A stretch of DNA of 64,000 nucleotides from Patescibacteria group bacterium. GTDB lineage: Bacteria; Patescibacteriota; Microgenomatia; UBA1400; PJMF01. The number at the start of each line of letters is the position of its first letter. Within the stretch, counting starts at the first letter, position 1. Positions 3,770 through 56,611 of this stretch are shown in pieces. The notes beneath the pieces are model-generated. The model had not been told where the DNA came from. It ran no database searches and saw nothing but the letters and a program-made list of their open reading frames with translations. The stretch lies in NCBI GenBank assembly GCA_039934415.1, contig JBDTME010000002.1, positions 14,351 through 78,350 on the forward strand. The letters are read 5' to 3'. The translations under genes were made by a program, and so were the position numbers.

Positions 3770-3805
3770 TCGCTGCTTTCCTTTCCTAAATTTCCTCTAT
3801 ATAAT
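3770..3805 (+). promoter_or_regulatory. putative promoter for second PBP gene, possibly giving a near-leaderless transcript
   Basis: TATAAT at about 3800-3805, only 7 nt before the ATG at 3813. No obvious Shine-Dalgarno sequence. Confidence 0.2.
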
Positions 3806-3812
3806 CCAGCCG

Positions 3813-17510: not shown

Positions 17511-17516
17511 ATTGAT

Positions 17517-19860: not shown

Positions 19861-19861
19861 T

Positions 19862-19897
19862 GAATTGATCGATACACTTTTTAAATCGATCAATTCA
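19862..19897 (+). terminator. perfect 11-bp inverted repeat immediately after the stop codon (hairpin; terminator or regulatory palindrome)
   Basis: AATTGATCGAT, 11-nt loop, ATCGATCAATT. T-rich loop but no downstream U-tract. Coordinates approximate to about 2 nt. Confidence 0.3.
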
Positions 19898-19940
19898 GGT
19901 AGAAACGCACATTCCTTACTGCAAAAATCACTAATTACCC

Positions 19941-21729: not shown

Positions 21730-24641
21730 AAGACTTGCTGCCAAGTTTTTTCACCTTTTATAATTTCACCGACTTTTTTAAATCTATCTTTATCACTATA
21801 CCCTTGATGGAGACAATCTTGATGAGATCCTGGGAATTCTGAAACACATTTACTGTATTCAACTTCCATCTCAGCTTTGTCACCAACAGATAAGAAGTAA
21901 TTGCCAAGTTGTTGGGTGATCCAAAAATCGTTTGGTTTCAAAACATTCATAAACCTTAAAATCATCACTGTTTCCTCAGGATTATTCTTTTGCAACGACT
22001 CTTCAGCCTGGGTCTCTAATTGCCGAATAAATAAATCTAAGCTTGTGTTGTCAGACAATTTAAAAAATTCCGCTAAAGCTAAATATTTTTTTACGCCCTC
22101 CAAGTTTCCTTGCTCATACAAATGGAGACATAAATAAAGTAAAAGTTGATAACTTTTTGCTTTTCTACCTTCATTAATTTTAGGGTAATAATTTTCAAAT
22201 GAGTCAAAATACTTTTGTGCATCCTCAGATTTTATTGATTCAACTGACTCAACATCTAAAAAATGGCCAGTTTTGCTGTTAAAAATCCAGGGATTGATAC
22301 TCAGGGCAGTTTTATAATTTTCAAGTAAGTAATCAAAGTCAATATGTACAGTTTCATTTCCAACCTGAATTAAAGAGCTGGCAAGCATCACCTGATATTT
22401 GTCATCAATATATCCCGCTTTTTTGAGCATCAATTGCCTCGTGTCACTCCAAATCGCTAGCGATTTTTTTGCGCTATCTAAATCCTTATTCGTTTTTGAA
22501 ACATTCATTTTTTCTTGAATCATCCGAGAAATATCAGGCCAAATCAGATGTGCTGTGCCAGGCGAAATGTCTATTGCTCGGTGAAGGCTTAAACTGGTTT
22601 TCTCAAATTCATTCTGATCAAACTGCCATTTAGCAAGCTCCCAATATTTTTGAGCGTATACCCTATTTTGGATTCCAAAATTGTCGGCAGGTATTTGATT
22701 AAGTTGAGTTAAAAATTGCTCTAGTTCCAAACCAGTAACATGCTGCAACTTATACTCATGATCTTGGATACTGAAATGTACTAGTGCATGAGAAAGTACA
22801 TATAACTTTCCTGCAAGCTCAGCTTGCCCTGACAGTAAAAGCTCATCTGCAAAATAGAGTGTTTTATTGGCTAATATCTTTTTTTGTTCAAAAGTAAGAT
22901 TCTGACCATGTGTATTTTTCTCGGCAAATATAACGAACTGTGCCAAGTTAAACACAGTGTCCTGATTCAAACCCATCTTTTTAAAATCTCTCAAGTCTTG
23001 TGTCGAAAAAAAGACAAGCTTCCACGGATCTAAAATGAATAAAGTATTGTTATCTTGGATACTATTTACTGCTGTTCCTACGTCATCAGTGAGAACATAC
23101 GTTTCACTATCGCTTCGATATATCTGTTGGAAAAATGTCGTTTGTTCAGGAGTTAATGATTGACTCGTCAAAAAAGCTTTTCTTTGATAAAAATAATACG
23201 GAAAAATTTGAAATGCAGTGGAAAATTTCCTTTGTGAAAGCAGGCTCTCATTGAGTAAAAATAGGATGCTGTATGCAAAAATAAATATACACGTTATGGT
23301 TGAAATCATGAGTAACCCATGTTTAAGATGAATATCATTCATTTTTTTACTTTGTGTATTACGAGTACCTCTCAAGATAATCGCAATCAGAATGACAACT
23401 ACTAAAAAGAGTGCGGAAAATGACCAGCTAAAATCAAAAAAACTATCAATAGAAGTTGAAAGTAGTGCAACTAACAAAAACGATTGTTCGCTAAATGGCT
23501 GAAGATTTCTTCTGGCATGACTCAAGACAACGAGGAAAATACTGACAAAAAGCAAAATGAAAAAAACGCCGGTAAAAATCCCTGATTCACTAAAAACTTG
23601 TAAAAACGAATTATGCGAGAACGTCGTGAACGCATATGAAGTGGCTCTATATTTACTTGAGATCAGTTGAAAAGTTCCTGGTCCATACCCAGTTAATGGA
23701 TAATTTTTAACACCTTGAAATGCTTCCCTCCAATATTCTGAGCGTAGATCTTTGTCAAGATTCTTGCACAACTTATTTTGCAAAGAAGGAAACGGACATA
23801 CAAATGAAGGTTGAATAATTTGAACAACAGAAAAAAACAATTTAAACGCTATTATCCCTATAAATAAAATTCCCAGGAAAAAAAGTGTGATTCTGTCAAA
23901 ACTGGTTTGTAATTTAATTACACTGGCCCTTTTATTGAAAGAGTGAAGAAAAATAAAGACGTATGATAATTGAAAGAATCCAATGAGAATTGCTACTCGT
24001 GCAAAAGTCGTTAGCAGTAATAGATTGAAAAACACATATAGATACAGGAATTTGTGTTTTTCAAATTTATCAAAATATTTTTTTTCTTCTCGATTTTGTG
24101 GTATTTTTTTAAAATTTAACAAAAAAATAATTGGATTAATCAGTATAATATAAGAGGCAATATGATTATGACCATATGTTTCATATATAAAATTCATGCC
24201 TGGTAAGTGAATTGCCCATTCTAGGTTGAGACGGACCAAAGTACTGATCACAAAAAGCACTCCCCCTATAAGTATCAAAATTAAAAAAAGAAATGATTTA
24301 TTTAAAAAGTTGGACGAAACAAGTAGAAAAAAAACAAAGACAATAAAATAAATACCAGAGAAAAAAATGGATTGCAGACTGAGTGGGAGATTATGGGTGA
24401 AAAAAGCTGAGACACACAAAAAAAATAAGTACAATAGCCACACAGAAATGACAAAAATGTTTGATTGATATTTAAGTTGATTCCAATCTAGTTCCCGCAC
24501 AAAAAAACAAACAAGTACTATAAACGCTCCCCCAGTTACTATTCCCAAGTAGGTCTCTCCCAAAAGAAATTGACACAAAAGAAGAATACTAAAAAAGAAT
24601 AAGAAAAAAAGATCTTTAATTCCAATCAACTTTGAGACCAT
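21723..24641 (-). CDS. O-antigen ligase/Wzy_C-family polytopic membrane protein fused to large C-terminal TPR-like domain
   Basis: 972 aa, at least 12 TM helices. Wzy_C signature SHNSFLQVFSESGIFTG. A C-terminal soluble region of about 500 aa is rich in helical repeats. Confidence 0.6.
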   Translation of the reverse strand: MVSKLIGIKDLFFLFFFSILLLCQFLLGETYLGIVTGGAFIVLVCFFVRELDWNQLKYQSNIFVISVWLLYLFFLCVSAFFTHNLPLSLQSIFFSGIYFIVFVFFLLVSSNFLNKSFLFLILILIGGVLFVISTLVRLNLEWAIHLPGMNFIYETYGHNHIASYIILINPIIFLLNFKKIPQNREEKKYFDKFEKHKFLYLYVFFNLLLLTTFARVAILIGFFQLSYVFIFLHSFNKRASVIKLQTSFDRITLFFLGILFIGIIAFKLFFSVVQIIQPSFVCPFPSLQNKLCKNLDKDLRSEYWREAFQGVKNYPLTGYGPGTFQLISSKYRATSYAFTTFSHNSFLQVFSESGIFTGVFFILLFVSIFLVVLSHARRNLQPFSEQSFLLVALLSTSIDSFFDFSWSFSALFLVVVILIAIILRGTRNTQSKKMNDIHLKHGLLMISTITCIFIFAYSILFLLNESLLSQRKFSTAFQIFPYYFYQRKAFLTSQSLTPEQTTFFQQIYRSDSETYVLTDDVGTAVNSIQDNNTLFILDPWKLVFFSTQDLRDFKKMGLNQDTVFNLAQFVIFAEKNTHGQNLTFEQKKILANKTLYFADELLLSGQAELAGKLYVLSHALVHFSIQDHEYKLQHVTGLELEQFLTQLNQIPADNFGIQNRVYAQKYWELAKWQFDQNEFEKTSLSLHRAIDISPGTAHLIWPDISRMIQEKMNVSKTNKDLDSAKKSLAIWSDTRQLMLKKAGYIDDKYQVMLASSLIQVGNETVHIDFDYLLENYKTALSINPWIFNSKTGHFLDVESVESIKSEDAQKYFDSFENYYPKINEGRKAKSYQLLLYLCLHLYEQGNLEGVKKYLALAEFFKLSDNTSLDLFIRQLETQAEESLQKNNPEETVMILRFMNVLKPNDFWITQQLGNYFLSVGDKAEMEVEYSKCVSEFPGSHQDCLHQGYSDKDRFKKVGEIIKGEKTWQQVFQ

Positions 24642-24642: not shown

Positions 24643-25362
24643 TCATGATTTTTGAGCTAGAATGATAACGCTCGAGCCAAATGGCAAATTAACATGTTTT
24701 AAGGCCCAAGCTTCAAACTTCATTATTTTTTTCAGGATTGCATTCAAAACTGAAGGAACTTTGTCGACATAATTCTCACTTTGTATCTGCTTTTTAACCA
24801 ATCGATGTAGTATGAAAAGAGGAAAAACAAAGCAAAAAATATTCGACGATCGCAATACTTTGAATCCAGATAATTTTATTAACTCTTCTAACTCCTTTTT
24901 TCGAAATCTTTTTTTTGCTTCCATTGCCTCATCATGCTTACTCCATAACCAAGGACAAATACAGTCAGTAACAATGATATATCCCTTATGCTTTAACACT
25001 CGATGAGCTTCTGACAGAGCTTTTATTTCATCTACTTGCTTATGATAGAGCACGTCGCAAAAGGCAACTAGATCAAAATTAGTGTCTTGCAATGGCAGGA
25101 CGTTGGCCGAACCTTTTATTGCTGTTATTTTCCTTCTTAATAGTTTTTCGTAAGCTAACTGATTTTTTTCTACGGCAGTGACTTTACCCCATTCTGAAAA
25201 GAGAGTAGTTATTCCACCTGTTCCTGCGCCAACATCCACAATTTTTTTTCTACCATCACCTAAAAACTGAGTAATGAAAACTCGAATGAAATTTCTTTTT
25301 GAAATAAACCACCAATGGTGATCTTCTAAATCAGCCATTTGAGTGTACTCATTTTTTTTCAT
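24643..25362 (-). CDS. class I SAM-dependent methyltransferase
   Basis: Motif I VDVGAGTGG; 239 aa; lies within the glycan locus. Confidence 0.7.
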   Translation of the reverse strand: MKKNEYTQMADLEDHHWWFISKRNFIRVFITQFLGDGRKKIVDVGAGTGGITTLFSEWGKVTAVEKNQLAYEKLLRRKITAIKGSANVLPLQDTNFDLVAFCDVLYHKQVDEIKALSEAHRVLKHKGYIIVTDCICPWLWSKHDEAMEAKKRFRKKELEELIKLSGFKVLRSSNIFCFVFPLFILHRLVKKQIQSENYVDKVPSVLNAILKKIMKFEAWALKHVNLPFGSSVIILAQKS

Positions 25363-25440: not shown

Positions 25441-25890
25441 ATGAAAATTTTAATTGTAACCTCATCTGGAGGGCACTTATTTAAGACTTTTCAACTTAAG
25501 CCATGGTGGTCAAAGTATGAAAGAGTTTGGGTTACCAAAAAAGACGAGTTTTCGGAGAGCATCTTAAATGGTGAGAAGATTATTCCCGGCAATTTTCCTG
25601 AACAAAGAAATATACTAAATTTTTTTAAAAATTTGTTCTTTGCTCTCAAATTACTCCGTACCGAAAAACCAGACCTCATCTTCTCGATGGGCGCTGGCAT
25701 TGCTCCACCGTTCTTTCTGGTTGCAAAACTATATAAAATTAAGACAGTCTTCATCGAAACATTTATCTCTATTAGTCAATCAACCATTTCAGGGAAAATG
25801 ATTTACCCACTTGCTGATCTCTTTTTAGTACAAAATAAAAAGCTGCTGCACGTCTATAAAAAAAGTCTATACTTGGGACCAATCCTGTGA
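25441..25890 (+). CDS. Alg14-like glycosyltransferase membrane-anchor subunit (PssD/Cps14F-like)
   Basis: 149 aa; N-terminal ILIVTSSGGH; overall Alg14-like layout; overlaps the downstream Alg13-like gene. Confidence 0.6.
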   Translation: MKILIVTSSGGHLFKTFQLKPWWSKYERVWVTKKDEFSESILNGEKIIPGNFPEQRNILNFFKNLFFALKLLRTEKPDLIFSMGAGIAPPFFLVAKLYKIKTVFIETFISISQSTISGKMIYPLADLFLVQNKKLLHVYKKSLYLGPIL

Positions 25891-26375
25891 TATTTATCAG
25901 TTTGGGCACTACATTAATACCCTTCCCTAGGCTGATTGAATCCAGTTTAGAAATCTTGAGTAACACCAGACAAGAGATTCACATTCAACACGGAAATACT
26001 CCAGTTGAGAGTCAAAGTAAATCAATCATCACAACACCATATATTTCTAACTCTGAAATGATTGAGGAAATAAGAAATGCAAACATGATAATATGTGCTG
26101 CAGGAGAGGCAACAGTTTTTCAGATATTACAAAATGCTCGTTATAAACCCATCCTTTTCCCTAGATTAAAAAAGTTCCATGAGCACGTTGATGACCAGCA
26201 ATTGTCTATTGCACAATACTTTGAAAAAAAAGATAAAGCATATTGTGCTTTAGATAGTGAACAACTTCAACAAATTATGAATGAATATCCAGTATTAGAA
26301 AAGAATAACCATCTAAGAAAAGAAACGAATAAAAAAATAATTGACAAATTAATTAGATTTACCGAAAACTTGTGA
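25887..26375 (+). CDS. Alg13-like glycosyltransferase catalytic subunit (GT28 C-terminal domain, PssE/Cps14G-like)
   Basis: 162 aa; starts IFISLGTT like Alg13/MurG C-domain proteins; paired with the Alg14-like gene. Confidence 0.55.
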   Translation: MIFISLGTTLIPFPRLIESSLEILSNTRQEIHIQHGNTPVESQSKSIITTPYISNSEMIEEIRNANMIICAAGEATVFQILQNARYKPILFPRLKKFHEHVDDQQLSIAQYFEKKDKAYCALDSEQLQQIMNEYPVLEKNNHLRKETNKKIIDKLIRFTENL

Positions 26376-27352
26376 ATAAAAAACAAAAGAAAATAATTCT
26401 GGTGACTGGTGCTGCAGGCTTCATTGGGTCAAACTTAGCAAACGAACTGCTTCGCCTCAATTACCAAGTAGTTGGTCTCGATAATTTTTTAGATAACTAT
26501 GAGGTTTCCATTAAAAAAAATAATATTCGACGGCTGTTAAGTTTTAAGCACTTCACTTTTTATGAAACCAACATACTTGATGTAACTGACTTAGAAAAGA
26601 TTTTCAGTACCTACCGATTTGACATTATTATTCATTTAGCCGCTCGAGCTGGTATCCGTCCTTCACTAGTACTGCCCCAAGCATATTTTGAAACAAATGT
26701 GATAGGCACCATCAATATCTTAGAGCTCATGCGAAAAAAATCCATTAAACAACTTATTTTCGCAAGCTCTTCAAGTGTGTACGGAAATAACAAAAAAACG
26801 CCTTTTTCAGAAACAGACAATACTGATCATCCTGTTTCACCATATGGGGCTTCCAAAAAATCAGCGGAAATTATTTGTCAGACGTACGCCCATCTTTACC
26901 AAATCCAAACCACTGTTTTCCGATTCTTTAGTGTGTATGGAAATGCAGGTCGACCTGATATGGCACCCTATATTTTCTCTCAAGCAATCCTCCATAAAAA
27001 ACCCATTCGAGTATTTGGCAAATCAATAACTAGAGACTACACCCATATCGACGATATTGTGCGTGGGATCATTTCTGGGATTGAGCATCCAACCCAATTT
27101 GAAATCATTAACTTAGGAAACAACTCACCAATTGGTCTGGAACAGCTAATAGGTTCCTTGGAAAAAATCCTGCACAAAAAATCAGACGTGATACATGAAG
27201 GGAGAGTTTCTGGAGACGTGAATACTACTTATGCTGATATTCGAAAAGCAAAAAAATTACTTGATTGGGAACCGCTTGTCTCTCTAGAAAAAGGACTTAA
27301 ACAATTCACAAAGTGGCTACAAATGAACGGCCCTACACATGATTCCAGTTAG
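26372..27352 (+). CDS. NAD-dependent nucleotide-sugar epimerase/dehydratase (extended SDR)
   Basis: Rossmann motif VTGAAGFIGSNL and catalytic YGASK (YxxxK); 326 aa. Confidence 0.85.
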   Translation: MNKKQKKIILVTGAAGFIGSNLANELLRLNYQVVGLDNFLDNYEVSIKKNNIRRLLSFKHFTFYETNILDVTDLEKIFSTYRFDIIIHLAARAGIRPSLVLPQAYFETNVIGTINILELMRKKSIKQLIFASSSSVYGNNKKTPFSETDNTDHPVSPYGASKKSAEIICQTYAHLYQIQTTVFRFFSVYGNAGRPDMAPYIFSQAILHKKPIRVFGKSITRDYTHIDDIVRGIISGIEHPTQFEIINLGNNSPIGLEQLIGSLEKILHKKSDVIHEGRVSGDVNTTYADIRKAKKLLDWEPLVSLEKGLKQFTKWLQMNGPTHDSS

Positions 27353-28451
27353 TCGAACACATATACCAAAAAAATCAGTGCAGCTTGTAACAGAGTGTCT
27401 CAACAGCGGTTGGATTTCTGGTCAGGGCAAATATGTTGAAAAATTTGAAAAAAAGTTTTCTCAATTCGTCGGTACAAAGTACGCATTAGCTACGAATTCA
27501 GGCACATCCGCACTTCATTTAGCGATACTAACTCTAGGTATTGGCCCGGGTGACGAAGTGATTTTGCCAGCATCAACCATTGCATCCTGTTTTTTTGCGA
27601 TCTGGTATACAGGAGCAAAAGCCATTCCTGTTGACGTAACACCCGACACCTACACTATAAATCCTCAGCTCATAGAGTCACACATCACAAAAAACACTAA
27701 AGCAATCATGGCTGTTCATCTCTATGGACATCCTTGCGACATGGATGCATTAGTTCATCTCTGTCATAAGCACAAATTATTCTTGATTGAGGACGCAGCT
27801 GAAGCACACGGAGCAGAATACAAAGGTAAAAAAGTTGGAAGTTTTGGTGACGTAAGCTGTTTTAGCTTCTACGCTAATAAACTCATCACAACTGGCGAAG
27901 GTGGCGCAGTGGTAACAAATAGTAATTCACACCATGTGCTTGCTAAAAAACTAAGAACACTTTATTTTTCTGATCAAAAACGATTTATTCATGATGGTAT
28001 CGGATATAAGTACGTGATGACAAATCTGCAAGCAGCGCTCGGCCTCGCTTCTCTAGCAGAGATAAAGAAATCAATTTCATTCAAAAAGAAAATGGCAGAG
28101 TTATACCAAAATCATCTCTATGAGATTCCAGGTTTAATACTTCCGATAGAAAAAGTGAACTGTTCAAACGTATATTGGATGTATGCCATTTGTATTGAGG
28201 AAAAAAAGTTTGGAATGAATAGAGATCAACTCATGGATATTTTATGGAATAAATATCATATCGAAACGCGAACATTTTTTTATCCCCCAAACATAGCCTT
28301 TGCATCTCTAGGCGTTTTCTCAAAACAATATTTCCCTATAGCTGATAAAATCTCTCAAGAAGGTCTGTACTTACCATCAGGTCTAGGGAACACTACTGAA
28401 GAGTTTAAGGCAGTTTGTAATGCAATCCAAAAAATTTCCAAAACCCATTAA
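27339..28451 (+). CDS. DegT/DnrJ/EryC1/StrS-family PLP-dependent sugar aminotransferase (ArnB/WecE-like)
   Basis: 370 aa; N-terminal block VTECLNSGWISGQGKYVEKFEKKF...ATNSGTSALHLA and a Lys-containing active-site region typical of the family. Confidence 0.85.
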   Translation: MIPVSRTHIPKKSVQLVTECLNSGWISGQGKYVEKFEKKFSQFVGTKYALATNSGTSALHLAILTLGIGPGDEVILPASTIASCFFAIWYTGAKAIPVDVTPDTYTINPQLIESHITKNTKAIMAVHLYGHPCDMDALVHLCHKHKLFLIEDAAEAHGAEYKGKKVGSFGDVSCFSFYANKLITTGEGGAVVTNSNSHHVLAKKLRTLYFSDQKRFIHDGIGYKYVMTNLQAALGLASLAEIKKSISFKKKMAELYQNHLYEIPGLILPIEKVNCSNVYWMYAICIEEKKFGMNRDQLMDILWNKYHIETRTFFYPPNIAFASLGVFSKQYFPIADKISQEGLYLPSGLGNTTEEFKAVCNAIQKISKTH

Positions 28452-30531
28452 GTTTTTTTTAAAAAAGGAAGTGCTTGCAGTTTGTTGCTGCTTTTTGTTT
28501 ATTTTGGCACTTTCTTGGAAAGGCTTGAATTGGGGGAGATATGAATCCTGGAATGCTGATCAGATGGCATTCAAAGACATTTTTATACAGAATGAAACCC
28601 CATTCAATCCAAAGTGGTTTCTAAAACCTCCGTTCTACACATACTTTATTTTTTTTGTAAGTGAGTATCCTCTAAATACGCTCTCTACCTTCCTCCACTT
28701 AAACCTAACTGACTTAGACACTATGAAATACTTGTGGGCAAAGATTTTGAATGTTCTAGCTTATAGTCTCTCCTGCGTCATCTTATTTAAAATCATTAGA
28801 AAAATTCGGCCAGTTGAAATAGCAGTAACTCTTACTGTCATTTTTATAACAAGTGCAGGAATGATTCCTTTTCTTTTTTTTCTGACACCTGACCTTTTCT
28901 TAATTTTATGGATGCTACTTTCCTTTTATTTCTCTCAATTAGTCTATGTCACTGACGATAAAAAAATAACAAACTATGTTCTTGCTGGTTTTTTTGTAGG
29001 AGTATCTACAGCATGCAAATATAACGGCGGCATTGTTTTGTTTGCTCTAATGATTTTTCACTTTTTAAGTCTGAAGAAATCCAATTCAAACTTGATAACC
29101 ACAAAAAAAAACCTCTTATTGTTTTCAGCCATGGGGGTTGCCGCACTTGCCTTTTTGATCTGTAATCCTTTCTCAGTTTTTGATTTCCCCACTTTCTCTT
29201 CAGACCTGTACTATCTTCTTACTACTGATGGCGCATATTTCGACATGGTAGTGAATTCGCAAAATGGACTAATTCGTTTCATTTTGCAGTTTCTTGAACT
29301 GATGGGAATTCCGGCTTTTATCCTACTCTTTATTTCAGTTGCACTTTCATTTAAAGCAAGAGCACAATGGAAAATGAAACTGACCGCGACTTTTCTTGCT
29401 TCATTTAGTTTGCTCCTAATTCCAGCTTTTATATTTTATAGTTATCGCGAAATACCAACTCGTTACGTGCTTCCTCTGTATCCGTTTTTACTCATTTCAG
29501 TAGCATGTTTATTTGATAAAAAAGTTATCTTCCAAAAAATTTTCATTGCCTCTCTGCTACTAACTCTTTCTTACAACATATTTTGTTCACTACAAGTCAG
29601 CACTCGATTTTCCCAAGATCCTCGGACACAGATGCAACGTGAAATCCTGACACTCATTCCTCCTTTTTCTAAAGTTGAACAAACCGCTTTCACGCCCAAT
29701 ATACCAACTGCATCAAAATCAAAATTCTTAATCTCTGAAATACCCATGATCACAGGTAGGAATCGCTACTTCAAAGAAAAATTCAAAGACAATGAGAAAA
29801 TTTTGAGTTTGATTGATCATCACGAAGGTACCGAAAATCTCAATTGGTTTAGTTCTGAAAATTTTCAAAAGAGAAACCCGGATTACATCATTTTGGACTC
29901 TTGGCAATATTTCTATGTGGGTAGCCCGTACATACAACAAAACTACCCTGAACTCGTAAGCTATTACAACTTCTTACTAGAGAAACACGATAAATATAGG
30001 GTGGTTTTTCAAAAGCAGACACCACTTCCACCCTGGTATCTATATCCTCGTGATATTGATTTTTTACAAAACACGATTACTTTACTTGAGCTCGATAATA
30101 ACGAAGTGAATTATGATATTGACGTTACAAATATCCGCCAGCAACTACTAAGTCAAACCCGTCTTATCCTTCTAAATACTGAACAAAAAAAACTGATGTA
30201 CAAATTTGCTACCTTCGAATCTATAAATAGTAATATGGAGAAATCTCAATTACTCTACAATCTCGCAGTTCACTTTAATGGTAAAATCCCACCAGAGCTA
30301 ATTGAAAATCTTTTGCAATTAAGTGTCACAACCTCGCCTGGTTGGAGTCATTTTTATATTGAAACGGCTAATTACTATTGGGAACATAGTGAGTATCAAA
30401 AAGCTCAAGATACGTTAAGAGCATGTTTGAAAATTCAAGTAGCGCAAGAACATTGCTTCAACATTTATAAAAAAGATACCTTGGGGAAATTTGGTGAGCT
30501 TTTGAAGTCCATTAATTCACTACCACAATGA
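28420..30531 (+). CDS. GT-C fold polytopic membrane glycosyltransferase (ArnT/PMT-like, GT39/GT83 family), tentative
   Basis: 703 aa. The N-terminal ~400 aa carry about 11 TM helices, with an acidic first-loop motif (RYESWNADQ). Soluble C-terminal domain. Follows the aminotransferase. Confidence 0.45.
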   Translation: MQSKKFPKPIKFFLKKEVLAVCCCFLFILALSWKGLNWGRYESWNADQMAFKDIFIQNETPFNPKWFLKPPFYTYFIFFVSEYPLNTLSTFLHLNLTDLDTMKYLWAKILNVLAYSLSCVILFKIIRKIRPVEIAVTLTVIFITSAGMIPFLFFLTPDLFLILWMLLSFYFSQLVYVTDDKKITNYVLAGFFVGVSTACKYNGGIVLFALMIFHFLSLKKSNSNLITTKKNLLLFSAMGVAALAFLICNPFSVFDFPTFSSDLYYLLTTDGAYFDMVVNSQNGLIRFILQFLELMGIPAFILLFISVALSFKARAQWKMKLTATFLASFSLLLIPAFIFYSYREIPTRYVLPLYPFLLISVACLFDKKVIFQKIFIASLLLTLSYNIFCSLQVSTRFSQDPRTQMQREILTLIPPFSKVEQTAFTPNIPTASKSKFLISEIPMITGRNRYFKEKFKDNEKILSLIDHHEGTENLNWFSSENFQKRNPDYIILDSWQYFYVGSPYIQQNYPELVSYYNFLLEKHDKYRVVFQKQTPLPPWYLYPRDIDFLQNTITLLELDNNEVNYDIDVTNIRQQLLSQTRLILLNTEQKKLMYKFATFESINSNMEKSQLLYNLAVHFNGKIPPELIENLLQLSVTTSPGWSHFYIETANYYWEHSEYQKAQDTLRACLKIQVAQEHCFNIYKKDTLGKFGELLKSINSLPQ

Positions 30532-30932
30532 TAGAACACATTATTTTTCTAGAAGAAAAAATTGCAACAATCGTTAGAGGTACACACACTGTGGAGAATT
30601 TAGAGTTCTTCACCGATGACACAAACCCCTTGCAAGTAGGCATGCACAGTAAAAAAGCTGGCACTAATCTTACTCCTCATATTCATCTTTCAAAAACTAA
30701 AGTGATAACAGAAATTCAAGAAGTTTTATATCTCATTAAAGGCAAAGTGAAGGTTACTTTTTATACAATAGAGGGTGATATTATTGATGAAAAAACTCTA
30801 AATACCGGGGATATTGCCATTTTAATGAAACTTGGTCACGGTTTTGAAGTTATAGAAGATAGTCTCATTTTGGAAGTTAAACAAGGACCGTACCCAGGTA
30901 CGCAACATGCGAAAATCTATTTAAAAAAATAG
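30528..30932 (+). CDS. cupin-fold protein (WbuC/sugar ketoisomerase-like?), tentative
   Basis: 134 aa; PHIHLSK...GDIAILMKLGHGFEV arrangement fits the two-motif cupin pattern. Confidence 0.3.
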   Translation: MIEHIIFLEEKIATIVRGTHTVENLEFFTDDTNPLQVGMHSKKAGTNLTPHIHLSKTKVITEIQEVLYLIKGKVKVTFYTIEGDIIDEKTLNTGDIAILMKLGHGFEVIEDSLILEVKQGPYPGTQHAKIYLKK

Positions 30933-30944
30933 AACAGTAATGAA

Positions 30945-31652
30945 TTATTTACTTGAAAGTGAGTACGCTACTTTAAGGTAACTAAAAAACATTTCCAGAA
31001 ACTTCGATTTGCTCCTACCTGAAGTCCTGTTAGGGTAATACACAGGTACTTCTTTTATAACAAATGCACTTTTCTTTGCCCAATATACAAGCCGAAGATG
31101 GTAGTCACCATAACCTTGGTATATTTCCTTCATATCAAGCATGAACAATTTATTTCTTTTAACAGCATAAAAGCCGCTGGTATTATCGTGGACTGGAAAC
31201 TGGAAAAAAAATTGGAGAAGCACGTTAAAAAGATAACTCGTAAGAAACCGCCACTTATCTTCCATGCCGCCACCATTGATGAACCGAGTGCCCACAACAA
31301 TATCTGCTGTTTTTAATGCCTGTAACATGGGAATCAGATGTCTTGGATGATGGTTAAAATCAGCATCCATACCAATAATGAAGGTACCTCTACTTTCTTG
31401 TATTCCCAATATAATAGATTGGCTGAGATCTCTAGGTGCGTTATGAGTAAAAACCTTAATATTTTTATTCTTTGTAGAATAATCTTTTACGAGATTAAAA
31501 GTCCCATCAGTACTCTCATCATCCACTACTATGATCTCGAAACGGTACTGAACTAAAGTTTTTGATATTTCATCAAGTAATCTCTGGATGTTTCCTACCT
31601 CATTAAAAGTAGGTATGATGATGGATATTAAATCTTTAGATTGAAATGCCAT
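30945..31652 (-). CDS. GT2 polyprenyl-phosphate glycosyltransferase (DPM1/ArnC/Ppm1-like)
   Basis: 235 aa; SIIIPTFNE, VVDDESTDGT and DADFNH blocks typical of Dpm1-like GT2 enzymes; convergent with the GT-C gene. Confidence 0.75.
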   Translation of the reverse strand: MAFQSKDLISIIIPTFNEVGNIQRLLDEISKTLVQYRFEIIVVDDESTDGTFNLVKDYSTKNKNIKVFTHNAPRDLSQSIILGIQESRGTFIIGMDADFNHHPRHLIPMLQALKTADIVVGTRFINGGGMEDKWRFLTSYLFNVLLQFFFQFPVHDNTSGFYAVKRNKLFMLDMKEIYQGYGDYHLRLVYWAKKSAFVIKEVPVYYPNRTSGRSKSKFLEMFFSYLKVAYSLSSK

Positions 31653-31669
31653 ATTGAAAAGCTAGCGTT

Positions 31670-32674
31670 ATGAAAAGACTAAAAAAAATCATATTTCTCA
31701 TATTTTTTTCTGTATTGTCTTGCATTGTTGCATTTTATCTGTCTTTTTATATTACAGAAAAGTTTTTTTTCGATAAAGTTTTTCTTCAAAAGAGTATTTT
31801 GCATGGATATGTGCTACCAGGCTCAATGGATCATCCCGAAATATTTGGACAAAGAATAGCAGGAATCATTTCTATTAACAACTTTTTGGCAAATGACTCG
31901 AAACAAGTGTTAGGAGAGAACATTACAAAAGATGAAAATAAAAAGCCCTTTGTTGTAGCTGTATTTGGTGATTCCTATGTGTTCGGAGCCGGGGTAAGAA
32001 ACGAGCAAGTCTTTCCACTTTTGTTAGAAAAGAAACTGAACCGGATACGACCCACCAAAGTACTTTCTTTCGCCTTATCCGGTGATACTATATTCGATAA
32101 TTATGAAAAATACAAAATCATTCAGGAAATGGGAGTACAACCCAATGTAGTTGTATTCGGTTTGGTCAATAATGATTTACTTCTTTCACCATTAAAATGG
32201 GCACCTTCCCCTACCATATATACAAGGTTTTCCGTAGAGTCTAGTAACATTTTCAATGGATGTACTGGGGAAATTATCAGACAGGAAGATGGTGACTCAT
32301 ATGAAAGAGACGTGTCGGCCCCTTTTGAAGTAGATACACTAAATTACTGTGGTTTTTTAAAAACTCTGACTCTTTTACCTAAAGAGAAAGCGATTTATTT
32401 CAATTTTTGGGATGTTAACCTGGAACCTGATACTCGAATGGAAAAGTTAATAGCTGGATTATCATCAAAAGGACTTCACATTGTCACACCTTTAAAAGAG
32501 TTCAAAAAATATCTTGGTAATAATAACGATAAAATTTCTGAAGTACCGGCTTTCCATGTTAGCAAGTTAGACTTTCATCCGTCGGCTGTCTCGCACGAAT
32601 TATTCGCAGAATCACTGTTTCAAGAAATTACATCGAATACTGACTATCAGTTCATGCAAATTAAACAAAACTGA
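31670..32674 (+). CDS. membrane-anchored SGNH/GDSL-family hydrolase, paralog 1
   Basis: 334 aa; N-terminal TM plus FFDKVFLQKS leader; block I VAVFGDSYVFGAGV, block II LSGDT, block III GLVNND, block V DFHPSAVSHE. Confidence 0.6.
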   Translation: MKRLKKIIFLIFFSVLSCIVAFYLSFYITEKFFFDKVFLQKSILHGYVLPGSMDHPEIFGQRIAGIISINNFLANDSKQVLGENITKDENKKPFVVAVFGDSYVFGAGVRNEQVFPLLLEKKLNRIRPTKVLSFALSGDTIFDNYEKYKIIQEMGVQPNVVVFGLVNNDLLLSPLKWAPSPTIYTRFSVESSNIFNGCTGEIIRQEDGDSYERDVSAPFEVDTLNYCGFLKTLTLLPKEKAIYFNFWDVNLEPDTRMEKLIAGLSSKGLHIVTPLKEFKKYLGNNNDKISEVPAFHVSKLDFHPSAVSHELFAESLFQEITSNTDYQFMQIKQN

Positions 32675-32699: not shown

Positions 32700-33686
32700 A
32701 TGAGTACTAAATTAAAAAATGTAATTCTATTAACTCATTTTTCCATTTTGACTTGTTTAATTGCATTTTACGTTTCATTTTTCTTCACTGAAAAATTCTT
32801 CTTCGATAAAGTCTTTCTCGAAAAAAGTGCTTTGCATGGCTATCTTCACGTCAACCAATTGAGCAAACTCGAAATTTTTGGACAACGATCTGAAGGAGAG
32901 AGAGCTCTAAGAGAGTTTTCATCCACCTCATCTAAAAAAGTATTGGGTGAATATTATGATGCAGACCAGAAACAAAAACCTTTTTTGGTTATTATCATTG
33001 GTGATTCGTTTGTTTGGGGGCAGGGAGTAAGAAATGAATCCCTTTTTCCAGTGCTATTGGAAAAAAAATTAAATAGTATTAGACCAGCTAAAGTGCTTGC
33101 TTTTGGATTTCCAGGCGATACCATCTTTGATTATTACAAGAAATACAGAACCATTAACGAGATCGGATTAGAACCCGATTTAGTTATTTTTGGCTTAGTA
33201 GACAATGATTTAATCCTTCAGAACTACTTTGACGAAAATTCAGATACTGACATGCAAAGAATATTTCACGACTGTACAGGACCATTAATCAAACAAAAAA
33301 AAGATGCTACGTACGAAGAAGAAGTTCTAGAATCATTTAAGGATGGTAATAAGAATTTTTGTGCATTTTCAAACCTTTTAGACAAATTGCCAAAACGACA
33401 TGCTATTTATTTCAACTTTTGGCCAGTTGAGTTACAAAGTAATGTCGGAATCATTACGTATATAAAATCATTCCAAGATAACGGATTTCGGGTCACTAGT
33501 CCATTGAATGAAATGAGAAGTTTTGTACAAAAGAATGACTTTCAGATTGGGGATATTCCTGACTTTCATGTCAGCCAAATAGATTATCATCCCTCTGCAA
33601 CGGCTCACGAGATATTTGCACAGTCTTTATTTAATGAAATTACGAACAATAACGAGCTCGGCTTTAAGATTACAAAGGATAATTGA
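32700..33686 (+). CDS. membrane-anchored SGNH/GDSL-family hydrolase, paralog 2
   Basis: 328 aa; same leader (FFDKVFLEKS); IIIGDSFVWGQGV, PGDT, GLVDND, DYHPSATAHE. Confidence 0.6.
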   Translation: MSTKLKNVILLTHFSILTCLIAFYVSFFFTEKFFFDKVFLEKSALHGYLHVNQLSKLEIFGQRSEGERALREFSSTSSKKVLGEYYDADQKQKPFLVIIIGDSFVWGQGVRNESLFPVLLEKKLNSIRPAKVLAFGFPGDTIFDYYKKYRTINEIGLEPDLVIFGLVDNDLILQNYFDENSDTDMQRIFHDCTGPLIKQKKDATYEEEVLESFKDGNKNFCAFSNLLDKLPKRHAIYFNFWPVELQSNVGIITYIKSFQDNGFRVTSPLNEMRSFVQKNDFQIGDIPDFHVSQIDYHPSATAHEIFAQSLFNEITNNNELGFKITKDN

Positions 33687-33729
33687 GATACAATAGTATT
33701 ATCCTTGAGAAAATGCTACATTGCATGAC

Positions 33730-35526
33730 ATGTGTGGAATTCTAGGTTTTACGGGCAAAAAAGATCCTTCTGTAACCAGAGGTTTATTAAAACTCATTCA
33801 CCATCGAGGATTTGATGATGAAACAATTGGATATCAATCTGGGCTAAATTACGCAATGAATCGGCTCGCTATTGTCGATCTGACTAAAGGATATTATCCC
33901 TTCCGATATAAACATTTTTCATTGATCTATAACGGTGAAATATACAACTACCCAGTTTTGAAAAAAAAGTTGATCAAACAAAAAGTCCAGTTTAAAACAC
34001 ATTGTGATGCCGAAGTCATCCTGCCACTTTTTGATAAATATGGTCCAAAAGCTTTTGCCATGTTGGAAGGTATGTTTGCAATTTGTATCATTGATCATCA
34101 AAAAAAAATTGTTTATCTATCTCGAGACAAATCTGGAGAGAAACCTTTATATTATAGTCAAACCCGAGGATTTAGTTTTGCTTCTGAGATGAAGGTTCTT
34201 CTGAATTTATCTTCTACAAAGATCCTTGATCGAGAGTCACTTTCTCAATATTTAACTCACGGCTCAGTGTTTGGGGAAAATACTCTAGTGACAGACATAA
34301 AAAAAGTTCCTCCTTCTCATTACCTTCGCTATTCATTAGAAACTCAACAAATTGAGGTGAAACAATACTGGAGTCCTGAGCTTTTTCAAGAGAACAACTA
34401 TCAAGAAGATTGTGTTTCTCACCTCACTTCACTGATCAAGAATGCAGTCGAAATAAGGTTACTCGCAGATGTTCCGGTAGGTACTTTCCTTAGTGGTGGA
34501 GTGGACTCAAGTTTGGTGACATATTTTGCAATGAATAAACTCAAAAAACTCAAAACCTTTAGCATCTCTTTTCCTGATCAAGCAGAAGACGAATCACAAT
34601 ATTCGCAAATCGCTTCCAAGTTTCTAGGGACAGAACATACTGAGATCCCCTGTACTTCGACTCATGTGCGAACAATTATGGAACAAATCGGTGAAATTAT
34701 TGATGAACCAATCTCAGATCCAGCAATATTACCTACCTTTCTAATGAGTAAAGTTGCTCGAAAACAGGTCAAAGTTGTTTTAGGCGGTGAAGGTGCTGAT
34801 GAGTTATTCGGCGGTTACTATCGCTATCAGAAACAACTGTTTCAACTTTATGTAAACAGAATATTGAGTGCTCATCATCTCTTGCCTAAGTTGTTACAAA
34901 ATATCCCTTCCAATAGAGTTAAAAACTTTTTAAAAAGTGGTAAAGAGGCATACTCAGCTCAAAACATCTGGACCGAAAATGAGCTATCAGAACTCCTGAT
35001 TACAGGATCTAACACTAAAGTACTAAAGAGAGATCCCGCAGTACTTCGTTCTAATCCTATGTTGTTTTTACAACTAAGTGATTATCGTGAATACTTACCG
35101 GATCAGCTGCTCATGAAGGTTGACAAAATTACCATGCAGCATAACTTGGAAGCGAGGGCCCCTTTTCTTGATACCAAATTAATCAACTTTGCTTTTAATT
35201 TAAAAACCAAAGAAAAAATACATGGTTTGCATAATAAGTACTTACTGAGAAAAGTCGCCGCTCAATTTTTGCCACCTGAGATTGTTTGGCGGTTAAAACA
35301 TGGCTTCTCACTACCTTTGAATGACTGGTTTCGAAATGAACTCAAAGATTTTGCATACTTAACACTTGAGAATGTGAAAGAATATCGACACATCTTTAAT
35401 GTTGATTTCTTCTCCAAAAAACTTGAAGAGCACATGACTAGTGAAGTTCGATATCGTGACAAAATTTGGAGTATTTTTGTACTTACTGAGTGGATGAAGA
35501 AATACCAAATTATAGAGTGCCAATAA
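33730..35526 (+). CDS. asparagine synthase (glutamine-hydrolysing)-family amidotransferase
   Basis: Ntn catalytic MCGILGF directly at the ATG (the ORF-track start 33721 is a TTG three codons upstream); synthetase-domain PP-loop FLSGGVDSS. Confidence 0.85.
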   Translation: MCGILGFTGKKDPSVTRGLLKLIHHRGFDDETIGYQSGLNYAMNRLAIVDLTKGYYPFRYKHFSLIYNGEIYNYPVLKKKLIKQKVQFKTHCDAEVILPLFDKYGPKAFAMLEGMFAICIIDHQKKIVYLSRDKSGEKPLYYSQTRGFSFASEMKVLLNLSSTKILDRESLSQYLTHGSVFGENTLVTDIKKVPPSHYLRYSLETQQIEVKQYWSPELFQENNYQEDCVSHLTSLIKNAVEIRLLADVPVGTFLSGGVDSSLVTYFAMNKLKKLKTFSISFPDQAEDESQYSQIASKFLGTEHTEIPCTSTHVRTIMEQIGEIIDEPISDPAILPTFLMSKVARKQVKVVLGGEGADELFGGYYRYQKQLFQLYVNRILSAHHLLPKLLQNIPSNRVKNFLKSGKEAYSAQNIWTENELSELLITGSNTKVLKRDPAVLRSNPMLFLQLSDYREYLPDQLLMKVDKITMQHNLEARAPFLDTKLINFAFNLKTKEKIHGLHNKYLLRKVAAQFLPPEIVWRLKHGFSLPLNDWFRNELKDFAYLTLENVKEYRHIFNVDFFSKKLEEHMTSEVRYRDKIWSIFVLTEWMKKYQIIECQ

Positions 35527-35528
35527 AT

Positions 35529-51962: not shown

Positions 51963-51970
51963 AAGATTTT

Positions 51971-55503: not shown

Positions 55504-55535
55504 AAGTAGAAAGAGTTCGTTTAAAACGTAAAAAG

Positions 55536-56535: not shown

Positions 56536-56611
56536 CGACTACATTGATCTTCACCAGATTGTTTTTTTAAGAAAAATTCTCTACACTTAAAAGTGGAATC
56601 AATTAATATAC

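Follow-up and report, generated by a model that had tools for sequence, protein, structure and literature searches.

A candidate Arn-like module for extracytoplasmic glycosylation, with a probable GDP-perosamine-like donor, in a Patescibacterial glycan locus

Described systems and the layout of the locus

In the Arn pathway of Gram-negative bacteria, which places Ara4N on lipid A, a DegT-family aminotransferase and a GT2 enzyme of the DPMS/GtrB/ArnC group are combined with GT-C transfer outside. Members of the DPMS family (PfDPMS, human DPM1, mycobacterial Ppm1) are described with PMT/GT-C transferases. Mycobacterial PpgS (Rv3631) and Rv3779 put galactosamine on arabinogalactan, and FlmF2/FlmK of Francisella are comparable: a short GT2 makes the polyprenyl-phosphate amino-sugar donor and a GT-C enzyme adds the cationic sugar to a wall polymer. 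GDP-perosamine, made by GDP-mannose 4,6-dehydratase (GMD) and perosamine synthase for the O-antigens of Caulobacter, Vibrio cholerae O1, E. coli O157 and Brucella, is N-acylated in the known pathways and consumed by cytoplasmic Leloir transferases. Three-component extracytoplasmic glycosylation, pentofuranose systems included, uses a polyprenyl-phosphate sugar synthase and a GT-C enzyme encoded in or near a glycan cluster (PMC11127046).

We analysed a window of 64 kb, the whole stretch of DNA considered here, from a 163.5-kb contig of a Patescibacteria group bacterium MAG. Gene identities, a GT-C fold, a DPMS-type active site and gene co-occurrence lead us to propose, with moderate confidence, that an Arn-like module for extracytoplasmic glycosylation, of the three-component kind and with a GDP-perosamine-like donor, is encoded there. 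Attaching a lipid-linked sugar outside the cell is a known strategy; the donor sugar has probably not been described before. The genes concerned are:

21723-24641, minus strand: polytopic membrane protein with Wzy_C domain (O-antigen ligase/polymerase-like), 972 aa (Pfam Wzy_C, E 7.6e-12)
24643-25362, minus strand: class I SAM-dependent methyltransferase, 239 aa (Pfam Methyltransf_11, E 2.3e-13)
25441-26375, plus strand: PssD-like (25441-25890) and PssE-like (25887-26375) genes, a two-part Alg14/Alg13-type glycosyltransferase
26372-27352, plus strand: extended SDR of the UDP-glucuronate 4-epimerase type, 326 aa (PDB relatives, motifs)
27339-28451, plus strand: DegT-family PLP aminotransferase, 370 aa, Schiff-base Lys181 (Pfam, PDB relatives)
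28420-30531, plus strand: GT-C fold membrane glycosyltransferase, 703 aa (PMT_2, AF2 model, Foldseek)
30528-30932, plus strand: WbuC-like metal-binding cupin, 134 aa (NCBIfam TIGR04366, conserved residues)
30945-31652, minus strand: DPMS/Dpm1-like polyprenyl-phosphate glycosyltransferase (GT2), 235 aa (PDB relatives, active-site residues)

The initial annotation had drawn the module as the five genes of 26372-31652. All five ORFs were found there, and the Pfam domains of the SDR, DegT, GT-C and GT2 proteins lie far above chance level; the extent was too narrow, as the methyltransferase and the Wzy_C protein share the conserved neighbourhood. The SDR, DegT, GT-C and cupin genes continue an operon that starts with the PssD/PssE-like genes at 25441, and they overlap by 14 nt (SDR/DegT), 32 nt (DegT/GT-C) and 4 nt (GT-C/cupin); the GT2 gene is convergent with the cupin gene, 12 nt past its stop. 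The deposited NCBI annotation holds the same proteins under consecutive accessions (MEO8581497, DegT; MEO8581498, GT-C; MEO8581500, GT2). The surrounding low-GC island (~21.7-46.6 kb) encodes a phosphoglycosyl transferase, GT4, GT2 and GT8 enzymes, an ABC-2 exporter and two Wzy_C proteins. At least six proteins with Thr/Pro-rich linkers flank this glycan island on both sides, and an AsnB-like amidotransferase is encoded downstream.

As in the Gtr (O-antigen glucosylation) and CsbB/GtcA/YfhO (teichoic acid) three-component systems, synthase and GT-C enzyme lie in or beside a glycan cluster, which fits decoration after polymerisation. Unlike these systems, the window synthase has no membrane domain, the module brings its own tailoring enzymes (aminotransferase, cupin, methyltransferase), and no flippase component was found in the window, with no GtrA, SMR or other small candidate in the island.

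The two glycosyltransferases

As first supposed, the 703-aa protein belongs to the GT-C fold enzymes. Of two Pfam families considered for it, PMT_2 was matched (33.9 bits; cut-off 26.1) and PMT (PF02366) was not. Its AF2 model has a pLDDT of 87.8, and all 21 Foldseek hits in the PDB at E<=0.001 are GT-C enzymes, including ALG9/12, DPY19, STT3/AglB, ArnT, AftA and Pmt4. About 11 TM helices (1-412) are followed by a conserved alpha/beta domain (~415-560) and a C-terminal helical-repeat (TPR-like) extension (~570-703). Across the family (1121 HMMER hits), Lys200 and Tyr201 are invariant, and Asp47, in the first loop on the outside, nearly so. We propose that this enzyme takes the sugar from polyprenyl phosphate and attaches it to an extracytoplasmic acceptor.

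The 235-aa GT2 (Glycos_transf_2, E 3.6e-30) has Pyrococcus DPMS as its best solved relative (5mlz, E 3.7e-26, residues 3-232), followed by GtrB and ArnC, so that ArnC and ArnT both occur among the solved relatives of the pair. In PfDPMS, the residues that serve binding of metal, dolichol phosphate and the A-loop are described, and Lys178 hydrogen-bonds mannose O4/O6 (PMC5526996). The catalytic, lipid-phosphate and A-loop residues are all kept: E18, D96, D98 and H101 correspond to PfDPMS E12, D89, D91 and H94, and R123, R135, S139, R209 and K215 to R117, R131 and S135 (lipid phosphate) and R202 and K208 (A-loop). D96 and H101, which contact mannose O2/O3, are retained; Asp183 stands in for Lys178, and Asn100 for Gln93. 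No hydrophobic segment or TM helix was found in the protein, an architecture shared with human DPM1 and unlike that of ArnC, which has TM helices. It scores 45.2 bits on the NCBIfam ArnC model (cut-off 529) and 35.1 on the PpgS model (cut-off 370). Judged by sequence, GT2 is a dolichol-phosphate-mannose-synthase-like lipid-phosphate glycosyltransferase and not a generic GT2, in agreement with its earlier description as Dpm1/ArnC-like, and we propose that it loads an amino sugar from a GDP derivative onto polyprenyl phosphate.

The position of Lys178 distinguishes families. It is Lys in 19 of the 21 GT2s that lie beside GT-C relatives without DegT, and Asp or Glu in all 45 members of the Patescibacterial GT2 family (45-54% identity among relatives). 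Among metagenome loci with both flanks present, an acidic residue occurs with DegT in 17 and without it in four, and Lys with DegT in none and without it in eight (Fisher p = 1.2e-4, kinship ignored).

This residue bears on Ppm1/Pmt-like O-mannosylation, the alternative offered in the initial annotation. GT2 would then make polyprenyl-phosphate mannose and GT-C would mannosylate the Thr/Pro-rich proteins, with DegT, cupin and methyltransferase feeding another sugar to an Und-PP glycan via Leloir transferases. Such a reading could draw on the kinship of GT2 with a true Dol-P-Man synthase, the kept O2/O3 contacts, the JGI name of GT2 relatives ('dolichol-phosphate mannosyltransferase'), the PMT_2 match and the six or more linker proteins around the island. 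However, the acidic replacement runs throughout the Patescibacterial family and tracks the presence of the aminotransferase, and most related loci have DegT abutting or overlapping GT2, among them stand-alone four-gene operons without other glycan genes, a coupling that also sets the gene apart from the DPMS family. Because the O4/O6-contact lysine is Asp and PF02366 is unmatched, plain O-mannosylation is disfavoured, and we regard it as unlikely.

The aminotransferase and its conserved neighbours

The DegT protein (Pfam DegT, E 5e-111), with its PLP lysine retained, best matches Caulobacter perosamine synthetase in the PDB (3bn1, E 3.7e-77; ArnB, 1e-47), and its relatives at 55-64% identity are mostly from Microgenomates/Pacebacteria. 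This kinship places it closest to GDP-perosamine synthase, and we propose that it makes a 4-amino sugar nucleotide. The module departs from the Arn pathway in several respects. It lacks an ArnA-type oxidative decarboxylase/formyltransferase, an ArnD deformylase and an ArnE/F flippase, and its SDR is an epimerase; DegT (222.7 bits on the NCBIfam ArnB model, cut-off 631) and GT2 both fall below the Arn equivalog cut-offs; and the precursor is probably a GDP-6-deoxyhexose, the Arn precursor being a UDP-pentose. Patescibacteria are not known to make lipid A. The PpgS/Rv3779 and FlmF2/FlmK systems differ in another way, as they start from UDP-GalNAc, with later deacetylation and no aminotransferase.

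We examined 77 loci of GT-C relatives from cyanobacteria, Verrucomicrobia, Anaerolineae, gammaproteobacteria and others. In 26 of them, a Dpm1-like GT2 gene stands no more than 500 bp from the GT-C gene, 19 of these GT2s being aligned nearly full length, and L017 and L066 are compact GMD - GT-C - GT2::GtrA_DPMS_TM operons with housekeeping genes on either side. As a control, DegT occurs in none of the 77. Conversely, among 15 metagenome loci of at least 6 kb with a close GT2 homologue (>=150 bits), 13 have DegT within 5 kb of GT2, mostly abutting or overlapping. L086 and L088 are stand-alone cupin-DegT-methyltransferase-GT2 operons; in L083-L085 the same four genes are rearranged and adjoin a Wzy_C protein and a polytopic 544-547-aa membrane protein, and L087 has GT2-YfhO(GT-C)-DegT with two PMT_2 proteins. 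The Patescibacterial GT2 family, DegT, the small cupin and the methyltransferase form a conserved module.

In Patescibacterial relatives, the membrane partner of GT2 is not detectably homologous to the window GT-C (hhalign E 0.64; no Pfam hit), and the 78 genome loci that carry relatives of GT-C include no Patescibacterial one. The case for pairing GT2 with GT-C here is therefore one of adjacency and analogy. The GT-C fold, the DPMS-like GT2 and the adjacency of the two across phyla support the lipid-linked logic initially suggested, and since DegT is tightly coupled to the GT2 family, an ArnB-ArnC-ArnT style of logic (amino sugar on polyprenyl phosphate, with a GT-C user) is the best reading.

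The genes could also be mere neighbours in a surface-glycan island, GT2 being a Leloir transferase on an Und-PP repeat unit and GT-C polymerase- or ligase-like. The many other transferases of the island, its exporter and two Wzy_C proteins, the TM-less GT2 and the missing flippase would suit such an arrangement, which we nevertheless hold to be highly improbable: GT2 keeps the DPMS lipid-phosphate and A-loop residues, GT-C/GT2 adjacency recurs across phyla, including in three-gene operons outside glycan islands, and the DegT-methyltransferase-GT2-cupin set is found again as an operon of its own.

The cupin has no Pfam match and no PDB sequence relative, and scores 40.5 bits on the WbuC model TIGR04366 (cut-off 42). 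Its H51, H53, E65, H104, D95 and K118, with the HxH...E...H set, are invariant in 11 homologues. Homologues directly adjoin DegT in L083-L086, L088, L090, L136, L138 and L150, and GMD in L123. As a module member, it may, at a guess, be an epimerase or isomerase acting on a 4-keto-6-deoxy intermediate. The methyltransferase, a member absent from the first description, received no specific assignment from NCBIfam or the PDB; orthologues (188-208 bits) directly adjoin GT2 in L083-L086, L088, L090 and L103, a homologue occurs in 10 of 30 DegT-GT2 loci, and our guess is that it methylates the amino sugar. The 972-aa Wzy_C protein has ~13 hydrophobic segments, and its homologues adjoin DegT in L081, L083/84 and L085, with more Wzy_C proteins in L087. 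This conserved neighbour probably handles the Und-PP-linked glycan and not the monosaccharide donor.

The donor sugar, the proposed pathway and the backbone glycan

The sugar is probably a perosamine-like 4-amino-4,6-dideoxyhexose, and its precursor is likely a GDP-sugar rather than a UDP-sugar, to judge by the kinship of DegT, the recurrence of GMD and the acidic replacement of Lys178 in GT2s paired with an aminotransferase. As in the GDP-perosamine pathway, GMD accompanies DegT-GT2 pairs: it is the best match of their SDR neighbours in five of eight cases. Its 415-bit cut-off is cleared by L138 only, L123 scoring 413.8, and the L142 SDR is an extra case through similarity to the L138 enzyme. 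Neither RmlB nor a GFO oxidoreductase was found beside any DegT-GT2 pair. GMD also lies directly upstream of GT-C relatives in L006, L017 and L066, and is the sole keto-sugar enzyme recurring near both families. An argument against the GDP-4-keto reading comes from L079-L082, which hold the nearest relatives of DegT (60-64% identity): there its partners are a GFO/IDH/MocA oxidoreductase and a GT2 of another kind, suggesting that these loci go via a 3-keto UDP-sugar. Unlike the known perosamine loci, the window has no N-acyltransferase, and the sugar nucleotide seems to go to a DPMS-like lipid-phosphate transferase.

From these elements we infer the sugar, the order of tailoring, the flipping step and the acceptor as follows. 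A 4-keto sugar nucleotide, most likely GDP-4-keto-6-deoxy-D-mannose, would be made by GMD outside the window; neither GMD nor another keto-sugar-forming enzyme is encoded within the 64 kb, which counts against the scheme, as does the missing flippase. DegT would transaminate it to a GDP-perosamine-like 4-amino-4,6-dideoxyhexose nucleotide, possibly modified by the WbuC-type cupin and the methyltransferase. The TM-less GT2 would load polyprenyl phosphate with the amino sugar on the inner side of the membrane, a flippase would carry the lipid-linked sugar across, and GT-C would pass it to an outside acceptor. The glycan that the surrounding island builds is the probable acceptor; the Thr/Pro-rich surface proteins encoded on either side could serve instead.

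The SDR was initially taken for an analogue of the ArnA C-domain or UXS, an assignment that we reject. It matches Epimerase/GDP_Man_Dehyd (E 1e-56), and its nearest PDB relatives are a Klebsiella epimerase (5u4q, E 1.3e-73) and Bacillus UDP-glucuronate 4-epimerase (6zl6, E 2e-53). Its motifs are GAAGFIG at 13, SSSSVYG at 132, YGASK at 158 and RFFSVYGNAGRPDM at 184, and SSSSVYG...YGASK is that of an epimerase; dehydratase or decarboxylase residues are absent, and the SDR stays below the cut-offs of the ArnA (54.5 vs 777 bits), gmd (68.6 vs 415) and dTDP-glucose dehydratase (157 vs 365) models. Nor does it travel with the module: this SDR type was not found in the retrieved DegT-GT2 loci and lies beside GT-C relatives in one of 77.

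An epimerase two genes upstream of GT-C, translationally coupled in the same operon, raises the possibility of Rgt-like decoration, in which the SDR would make UDP-galacturonate, GT2 polyprenyl-phosphate GalA (as Rhizobium RgtE) and GT-C would add GalA (as RgtA-D), DegT being unrelated. L006, where UDP-glucose dehydrogenase and a homologous SDR (233 bits) stand just upstream of GMD-GT-C, is in line with this, and the AsnB-like amidotransferase is compatible with uronic-acid chemistry. We nonetheless find it quite improbable, given the scarcity of this SDR type in related loci and an acidic sugar-contact residue in GT2 that would be unlikely to suit an anionic uronate. Furthermore, GDP-sugars are the donors of the DPMS-like enzymes nearest to PfDPMS, and galacturonate is activated with UDP.

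Under the amino-sugar pathway, the SDR does not contribute to the keto-sugar of DegT and probably makes UDP-galacturonate available to the glycan cluster around it; it would serve the backbone glycan together with the upstream PssD/E-like transferase and the downstream AsnB-like amidotransferase. The PssD/PssE-like genes are absent from every related module locus. The first scores 124.7 bits on PssD (cut-off 110), the second 74.5 on PssE (below the cut-off of 120), and both weakly match the glucuronosyltransferase WelK; they probably act in backbone glycan synthesis, outside the lipid-monosaccharide module.

The gene set and its GT-C transferase

All five open reading frames that the initial annotation had joined into a lipid-linked sugar module, modelled there on the Arn pathway or on Ppm1-Pmt, were recovered in the window:

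26372-27352 (+), SDR protein
27339-28451 (+), DegT aminotransferase
28420-30531 (+), 703-aa GT-C protein
30528-30932 (+), cupin
30945-31652 (-), GT2 glycosyltransferase

Their operon starts with PssD/PssE-like genes at 25441 and continues through SDR, DegT, GT-C and cupin, with successive overlaps of 14, 32 and 4 nt; the GT2 gene is convergent to the cupin and ends 12 nt past it. The GT-C, DegT and GT2 proteins are identical (100%) to NCBI entries MEO8581498, MEO8581497 and MEO8581500, all from one 163.5-kb contig of a 'Patescibacteria group bacterium' MAG.

At the level of profile and modelled structure, the predicted GT-C fold of the 703-aa protein can be regarded as established, as had been proposed. 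The protein passes Pfam PMT_2 (PF13231; ArnT/GT83/GT39-like clan) with 33.9 bits against a gathering cut-off of 26.1 (residues 109-242), and when its AF2 model, built from a 44-member alignment (pLDDT 87.8, pTM 0.81), was compared with the PDB by Foldseek, 21 of 21 matches at E<=1e-3 were GT-C enzymes (ALG9/12, DPY19, STT3/AglB, ArnT, AftA, AftD). The more specific placement proposed by the initial annotation fared less evenly. Besides the PMT_2 match there was none at E<=0.01 to Pfam PMT (PF02366, the GT39 protein O-mannosyltransferases), on which some family members score 29-47 bits; and ArnT (5f15/5ezm) resembles the model at the level of fold only (E 1.6e-4 and 8e-4, TM about 0.4-0.5), no better than ALG9/12 or STT3, so that assignment to GT39 or GT83 is not established. 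A phmmer search against PDB chains, ArnT included, gave no match at E<=1, and an exact-match look-up of the GT-C gene found no entry.

An exhaustive HMMER search returned 1121 relatives (74 with E<1e-30); most have a length of about 550 aa and share about 30% identity across residues 20-557. In the alignment of 44 members, Lys200 and Tyr201 are invariant and Asp47 (WNADQMA) is conserved in at least 90%; Asp47 is the conserved acidic residue of the first extracytoplasmic loop, which is placed outside on account of the Lys-rich N-terminus before TM1. Relatives with N-terminal extensions of 200-280 aa were considered as 'Rosetta stone' fusions of GT2 to GT-C, a possibility that was rejected because they gave only PMT/PMT_2 in Pfam and no GT2.

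A link between the two transferases comes from other phyla. We retrieved 78 genome loci with GT-C relatives, from cyanobacteria, Chthoniobacterales and other Verrucomicrobia, Anaerolineae, gammaproteobacteria, Binatia and others; none was Patescibacterial, although the pattern used for the DNA search would have overlooked CKYNG, the motif in the window itself, as well. At least 26 of the 77 scorable loci, a lower bound as many contigs end early, have a homologue of the window GT2 no more than 500 bp from the GT-C gene, and 19 of these homologues align nearly full length. Two Verrucomicrobial loci (L017, 6677-10699; L066, 6792-10749) hold a three-gene operon, flanked by housekeeping genes, of a GDP-mannose 4,6-dehydratase (GMD), GT-C and a GT2 fused to GtrA_DPMS_TM, a domain that the window GT2 lacks. 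This operon seems to encode a lipid-linked 6-deoxyhexose system not yet characterised. DegT and cupin genes are absent from all 77 loci.

A probable lipid-phosphate synthase with a changed sugar contact

Among solved structures, the window GT2 is closest to the Pyrococcus dolichol-phosphate-mannose synthase (PfDPMS; E 3.7e-26, residues 3-232); GtrB and ArnC come next, and each of the three is a lipid-phosphate glycosyltransferase. We mapped its residues in a 148-sequence alignment anchored on PfDPMS.

Functional residues of PfDPMS (roles from PMC5526996) and their equivalents in the window GT2
Role; PfDPMS; window GT2
DxD metal site; D89, D91; D96, D98
Metal site; Q93; N100 (changed)
Mannose O3 contact; H94; H101
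Dolichol-phosphate binding; R117, R131, S135; R123, R135, S139
A-loop network; R202, K208, E12; R209, K215, E18
Mannose O4/O6 contact; K178; D183 (changed)

Together with its closest solved relatives, the retention of metal, A-loop and acceptor-phosphate residues places the window GT2 in the DPMS/GtrB/ArnC group, in agreement with the initial annotation. Among 45 family members the acceptor-phosphate residues, R, R and S or T, are kept in 45, 43 and 45. Its 235 aa contain no hydrophobic segment that could serve as a membrane anchor, and no DPM2/3-like partner was identified; in being TM-less it is like the DPM1-type enzymes.

A bona fide dolichol- or polyprenol-phosphate mannose synthase is disfavoured by the position of K178, which in PfDPMS hydrogen-bonds mannose O4/O6 (PMC5526996) and which is Asp183 in the window GT2 and Asp or Glu in 45 of 45 family members. 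The same position is Lys in 19 of 21 GT2s that stand beside GT-C relatives in other phyla, at loci without DegT. Where a metagenome locus extends 1.5 kb or more in both directions from the GT2 gene, an acidic residue occurs 17 times with DegT and four times without, and Lys never with DegT and eight times without (Fisher p = 1.2e-4, a statistic that ignores phylogeny). Exchange of a positive for a negative charge where the sugar's O4 and O6 are contacted would be expected of an enzyme whose donor bears a protonated 4-amino group. Lys versus Asp/Glu at this position offers a candidate single-residue specificity marker that could predict amino-sugar-using lipid-phosphate synthases from sequence.

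Probable identity of the sugar and the Patescibacterial gene set

The aminotransferase has GDP-perosamine synthase (3bn1/3dr4) as its best PDB match (3bn1, E 3.7e-77, 263 bits), as against about 1e-47 and 166-172 bits for ArnB structures, and it keeps the PLP lysine (K181). The possibility that it is ArnB, the UDP-Ara4N aminotransferase, was rejected, since it scores 222.7 bits on the equivalog HMM against a cut-off of 631.

Relatives of DegT at 55-64% identity are numerous and come mostly from Microgenomates-type lineages, in which relatives of the GT2 (about 235 aa, 45-54% identity) occur too. Of the 80 metagenome loci that the GT2 alignment retrieved, 15 have a GT2 of at least 150 bits and a sequence of 6 kb or more; in 13 of these 15, DegT is no more than 5 kb from GT2 and mostly abuts or overlaps it. 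The SDR beside the DegT-GT2 pair has GMD as its best NCBIfam match in five of eight cases (537 bits at L138, cut-off 415; 413.8, just under the cut-off, at L123), and L142 can be added because its SDR resembles that of L138, so that GMD stands beside homologous DegT-GT2 pairs in five to six loci. Independently of these Patescibacterial data, GMD lies directly upstream of GT-C relatives at L006, L017 and L066 (515-543 bits). In the 64-kb window we found neither GMD nor another enzyme that would form the keto-sugar for DegT. Taken together, the similarity of DegT, the GMD neighbours of DegT-GT2 pairs and of GT-C relatives, and the replacement of K178 suggest that the sugar is a 4-amino-4,6-dideoxyhexose with a GDP-sugar as its precursor.

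It is also possible that the donor is a 3-amino UDP-sugar made by a GFO-type route. The nearest DegT relatives (L079-L082, 60-64% identity) form a conserved trio with a GFO/IDH/MocA oxidoreductase (GFO) and a 265-aa GT2 of a different type; beside the DegT-GT2 pairs, no GFO oxidoreductase and no RmlB were found. In Patescibacteria, closely similar aminotransferases may therefore work in two distinct keto-sugar routes. Another 3-amino route, to a mycaminose-like 3-amino-3,6-dideoxyhexose, would draw on cupin, DegT and methyltransferase in the manner of Tyl1a, TylB and TylM1. The methyltransferase shows no TylM1/DesVI similarity among its PDB matches (its NCBIfam matches are generic only), and the cupin has no FdtA/QdtA Pfam match and no PDB sequence match, even with a profile. 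With these results and no RmlB beside the pairs, we gave up the mycaminose-like route and preferred the GMD route. The cupin reaches 40.5 bits on the WbuC model TIGR04366 (cut-off 42), with HxH...E...H invariant in 11 homologues; its single-sequence structure model (pLDDT 40) is too low for use.

For the GMD route we propose, tentatively and at well below an even chance, that Patescibacteria, and by extension several other phyla, would make a polyprenyl-phosphate donor of perosamine or of an N-methylated 4-amino-4,6-dideoxyhexose, that a DPMS-like enzyme would have been switched from GDP-mannose to a GDP-amino-sugar by the Lys to Asp/Glu change at the O4/O6 contact, and that the GT-C enzyme would put the free cationic sugar on a surface without lipid A. 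Our literature search found no paper describing a polyprenyl-phosphate perosamine-type donor, and nothing relevant on O-antigen ligase or glycosylation in Patescibacteria.

The analysis defines a recurrent, compact Patescibacterial gene set of aminotransferase, cupin, methyltransferase, TM-less DPMS-like synthase and polytopic transferase. Stand-alone operons of cupin, DegT, methyltransferase and GT2 are found at L086 and L088; four loci (L083, L084, L085, L090) have the same genes with a Wzy_C protein and a polytopic membrane protein of 544-547 aa; and L087 holds GT2, YfhO (GT-C) and DegT, plus two PMT_2 proteins and Wzy_C proteins. Every element of the set is present in the window, where insertion of the GT-C gene separates DegT from the cupin. 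Polytopic proteins of 520-547 aa with 7-11 hydrophobic segments lie beside methyltransferase-GT2 at L083 (10962-12596), L085 (6622-8265) and L088 (5122-6684). They may represent a divergent family of transferases or flippases; they match nothing in Pfam or NCBIfam and are not detectably similar to the window GT-C (hhalign E 0.64 for those of 544-547 aa).

In mode of working, the window module is like the Arn pathway, although it fails the ArnA, ArnB and ArnC equivalog tests, and like the three-component extracytoplasmic glycosylation systems (PMC11127046). It differs from both in its TM-less DPMS-like synthase, in having no formyl or acetyl handling, in probably starting from a GDP-sugar, and in that no flippase was found. 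No island ORF of 60-260 aa has the three or more hydrophobic segments of a GtrA, SMR/ArnEF or MATE-type candidate, and the sole MOP-family protein found is MurJ (15029-16756).

Patescibacteria live attached to host cells, and to our knowledge almost nothing is known experimentally of their cell-surface chemistry. Given this way of life, it is likely that surface glycans help them to attach and to resist cationic peptides. If the proposal holds, such decoration would play in ultra-small episymbiotic bacteria a role equivalent to that of Ara4N.

The SDR and the surrounding glycan island

The initial annotation had likened the SDR to the C-terminal domain of ArnA. That analogy has to be corrected: its motif is SSSSVYG, not the STSEVYG type with Thr/Ser-Glu, and it scores 54.5 on the ArnA model (cut-off 777) and 51.4 on UDP-4-keto-pentose/UDP-xylose synthase (cut-off 294). 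A 4,6-dehydratase of the RmlB or GMD kind was rejected as well, for SSSSVYG has no acidic residue and the scores were 157.5 against 365 for dTDP-glucose dehydratase and 68.6 against 415 for gmd, the latter over the N-terminal half only. The protein carries SSSSVYG...YGASK and RFFSVYGNAGRPDM; the S-S-S...YxxxK and RFFTVYGPWGRPDMA-type motifs of UDP-glucuronate 4-epimerases are present, and its best solved relatives, a Klebsiella epimerase (5u4q, E 1.3e-73) and the Bacillus UDP-glucuronate 4-epimerase (6zl6, E 2e-53), are ahead of all GalE and dehydratase entries. By these similarities it is predicted to be of the UDP-glucuronate 4-epimerase type, a family with no curated HMM in the libraries used.

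An SDR of this type does not accompany the DegT-GT2 module in the related loci retrieved. One exception in a wider sense is L006, from Anaerolineae, where UDP-glucose dehydrogenase and a homologous SDR precede GMD and GT-C. Read most simply, the SDR would provide UDP-galacturonate for a backbone glycan, working with the upstream PssD/E-like transferase and the downstream AsnB-like amidotransferase.

These genes belong to an island at about 21.1-46.6 kb with 31-37% G+C, compared with 39-46% in the flanks. Its low G+C and the non-Patescibacterial relatives of its GT-C (the nearest at most 38% identical, from cyanobacteria, Verrucomicrobia and others) fit acquisition by horizontal transfer, with the reservation on the DNA search pattern given above.

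Further genes of the glycan island and its edge
Gene; position
Phosphoglycosyl transferase; 21076-21729
Two Wzy_C proteins; island
GT4, GT2 and GT8 transferases; island
ABC-2 exporter; island
Three membrane-anchored GDSL/SGNH-like paralogues; 31670-32674, 32700-33686, 35490-36536
AsnB-like glutamine amidotransferase; 33721-35526, interleaved among the GDSL-like paralogues
NodU/CmcH-type carbamoyltransferase; 46984-48678, just beyond the island edge, adjoining ABC-2 exporter genes

The GDSL-like paralogues and the AsnB-like protein possibly serve O-acyl handling of the glycan and amidation of uronic acids, and the NodU-like gene at the edge hints at carbamoylated sugars. The start codons of GT2 (-) and of the first GDSL-like gene (+) are divergent and 17 nt apart (31652-31670), a gap so short that the promoters would have to be located within adjacent coding sequence, unless the two genes depend on read-through.

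Genes for surface proteins whose long linkers are rich in Thr and Pro (S/T/P content of up to 87% in 30 aa) flank the island, in a run at 50607-58261 and also at 18775-21068 and 48930-50495. These proteins, or a wall glycan, may be the acceptor of the sugar; no link between the proteins and the GT-C was found. One of these proteins has DUF11 repeats and one a VWA domain. In four consecutive surface proteins (starts 50607, 53524, 55660 and 56612) an N-terminal TM helix precedes a conserved 'APNAP(G/Q/A)SQP'-like motif, an arrangement that suggests a common sorting or processing signal. Elsewhere in the window (1196-6230, 16920-18652) lie a tandem pair of class A penicillin-binding proteins (792 and 805 aa) and genes for pilus assembly of the PilN/PilO-like kind, with MurJ between the PBP/pilus genes and the island.
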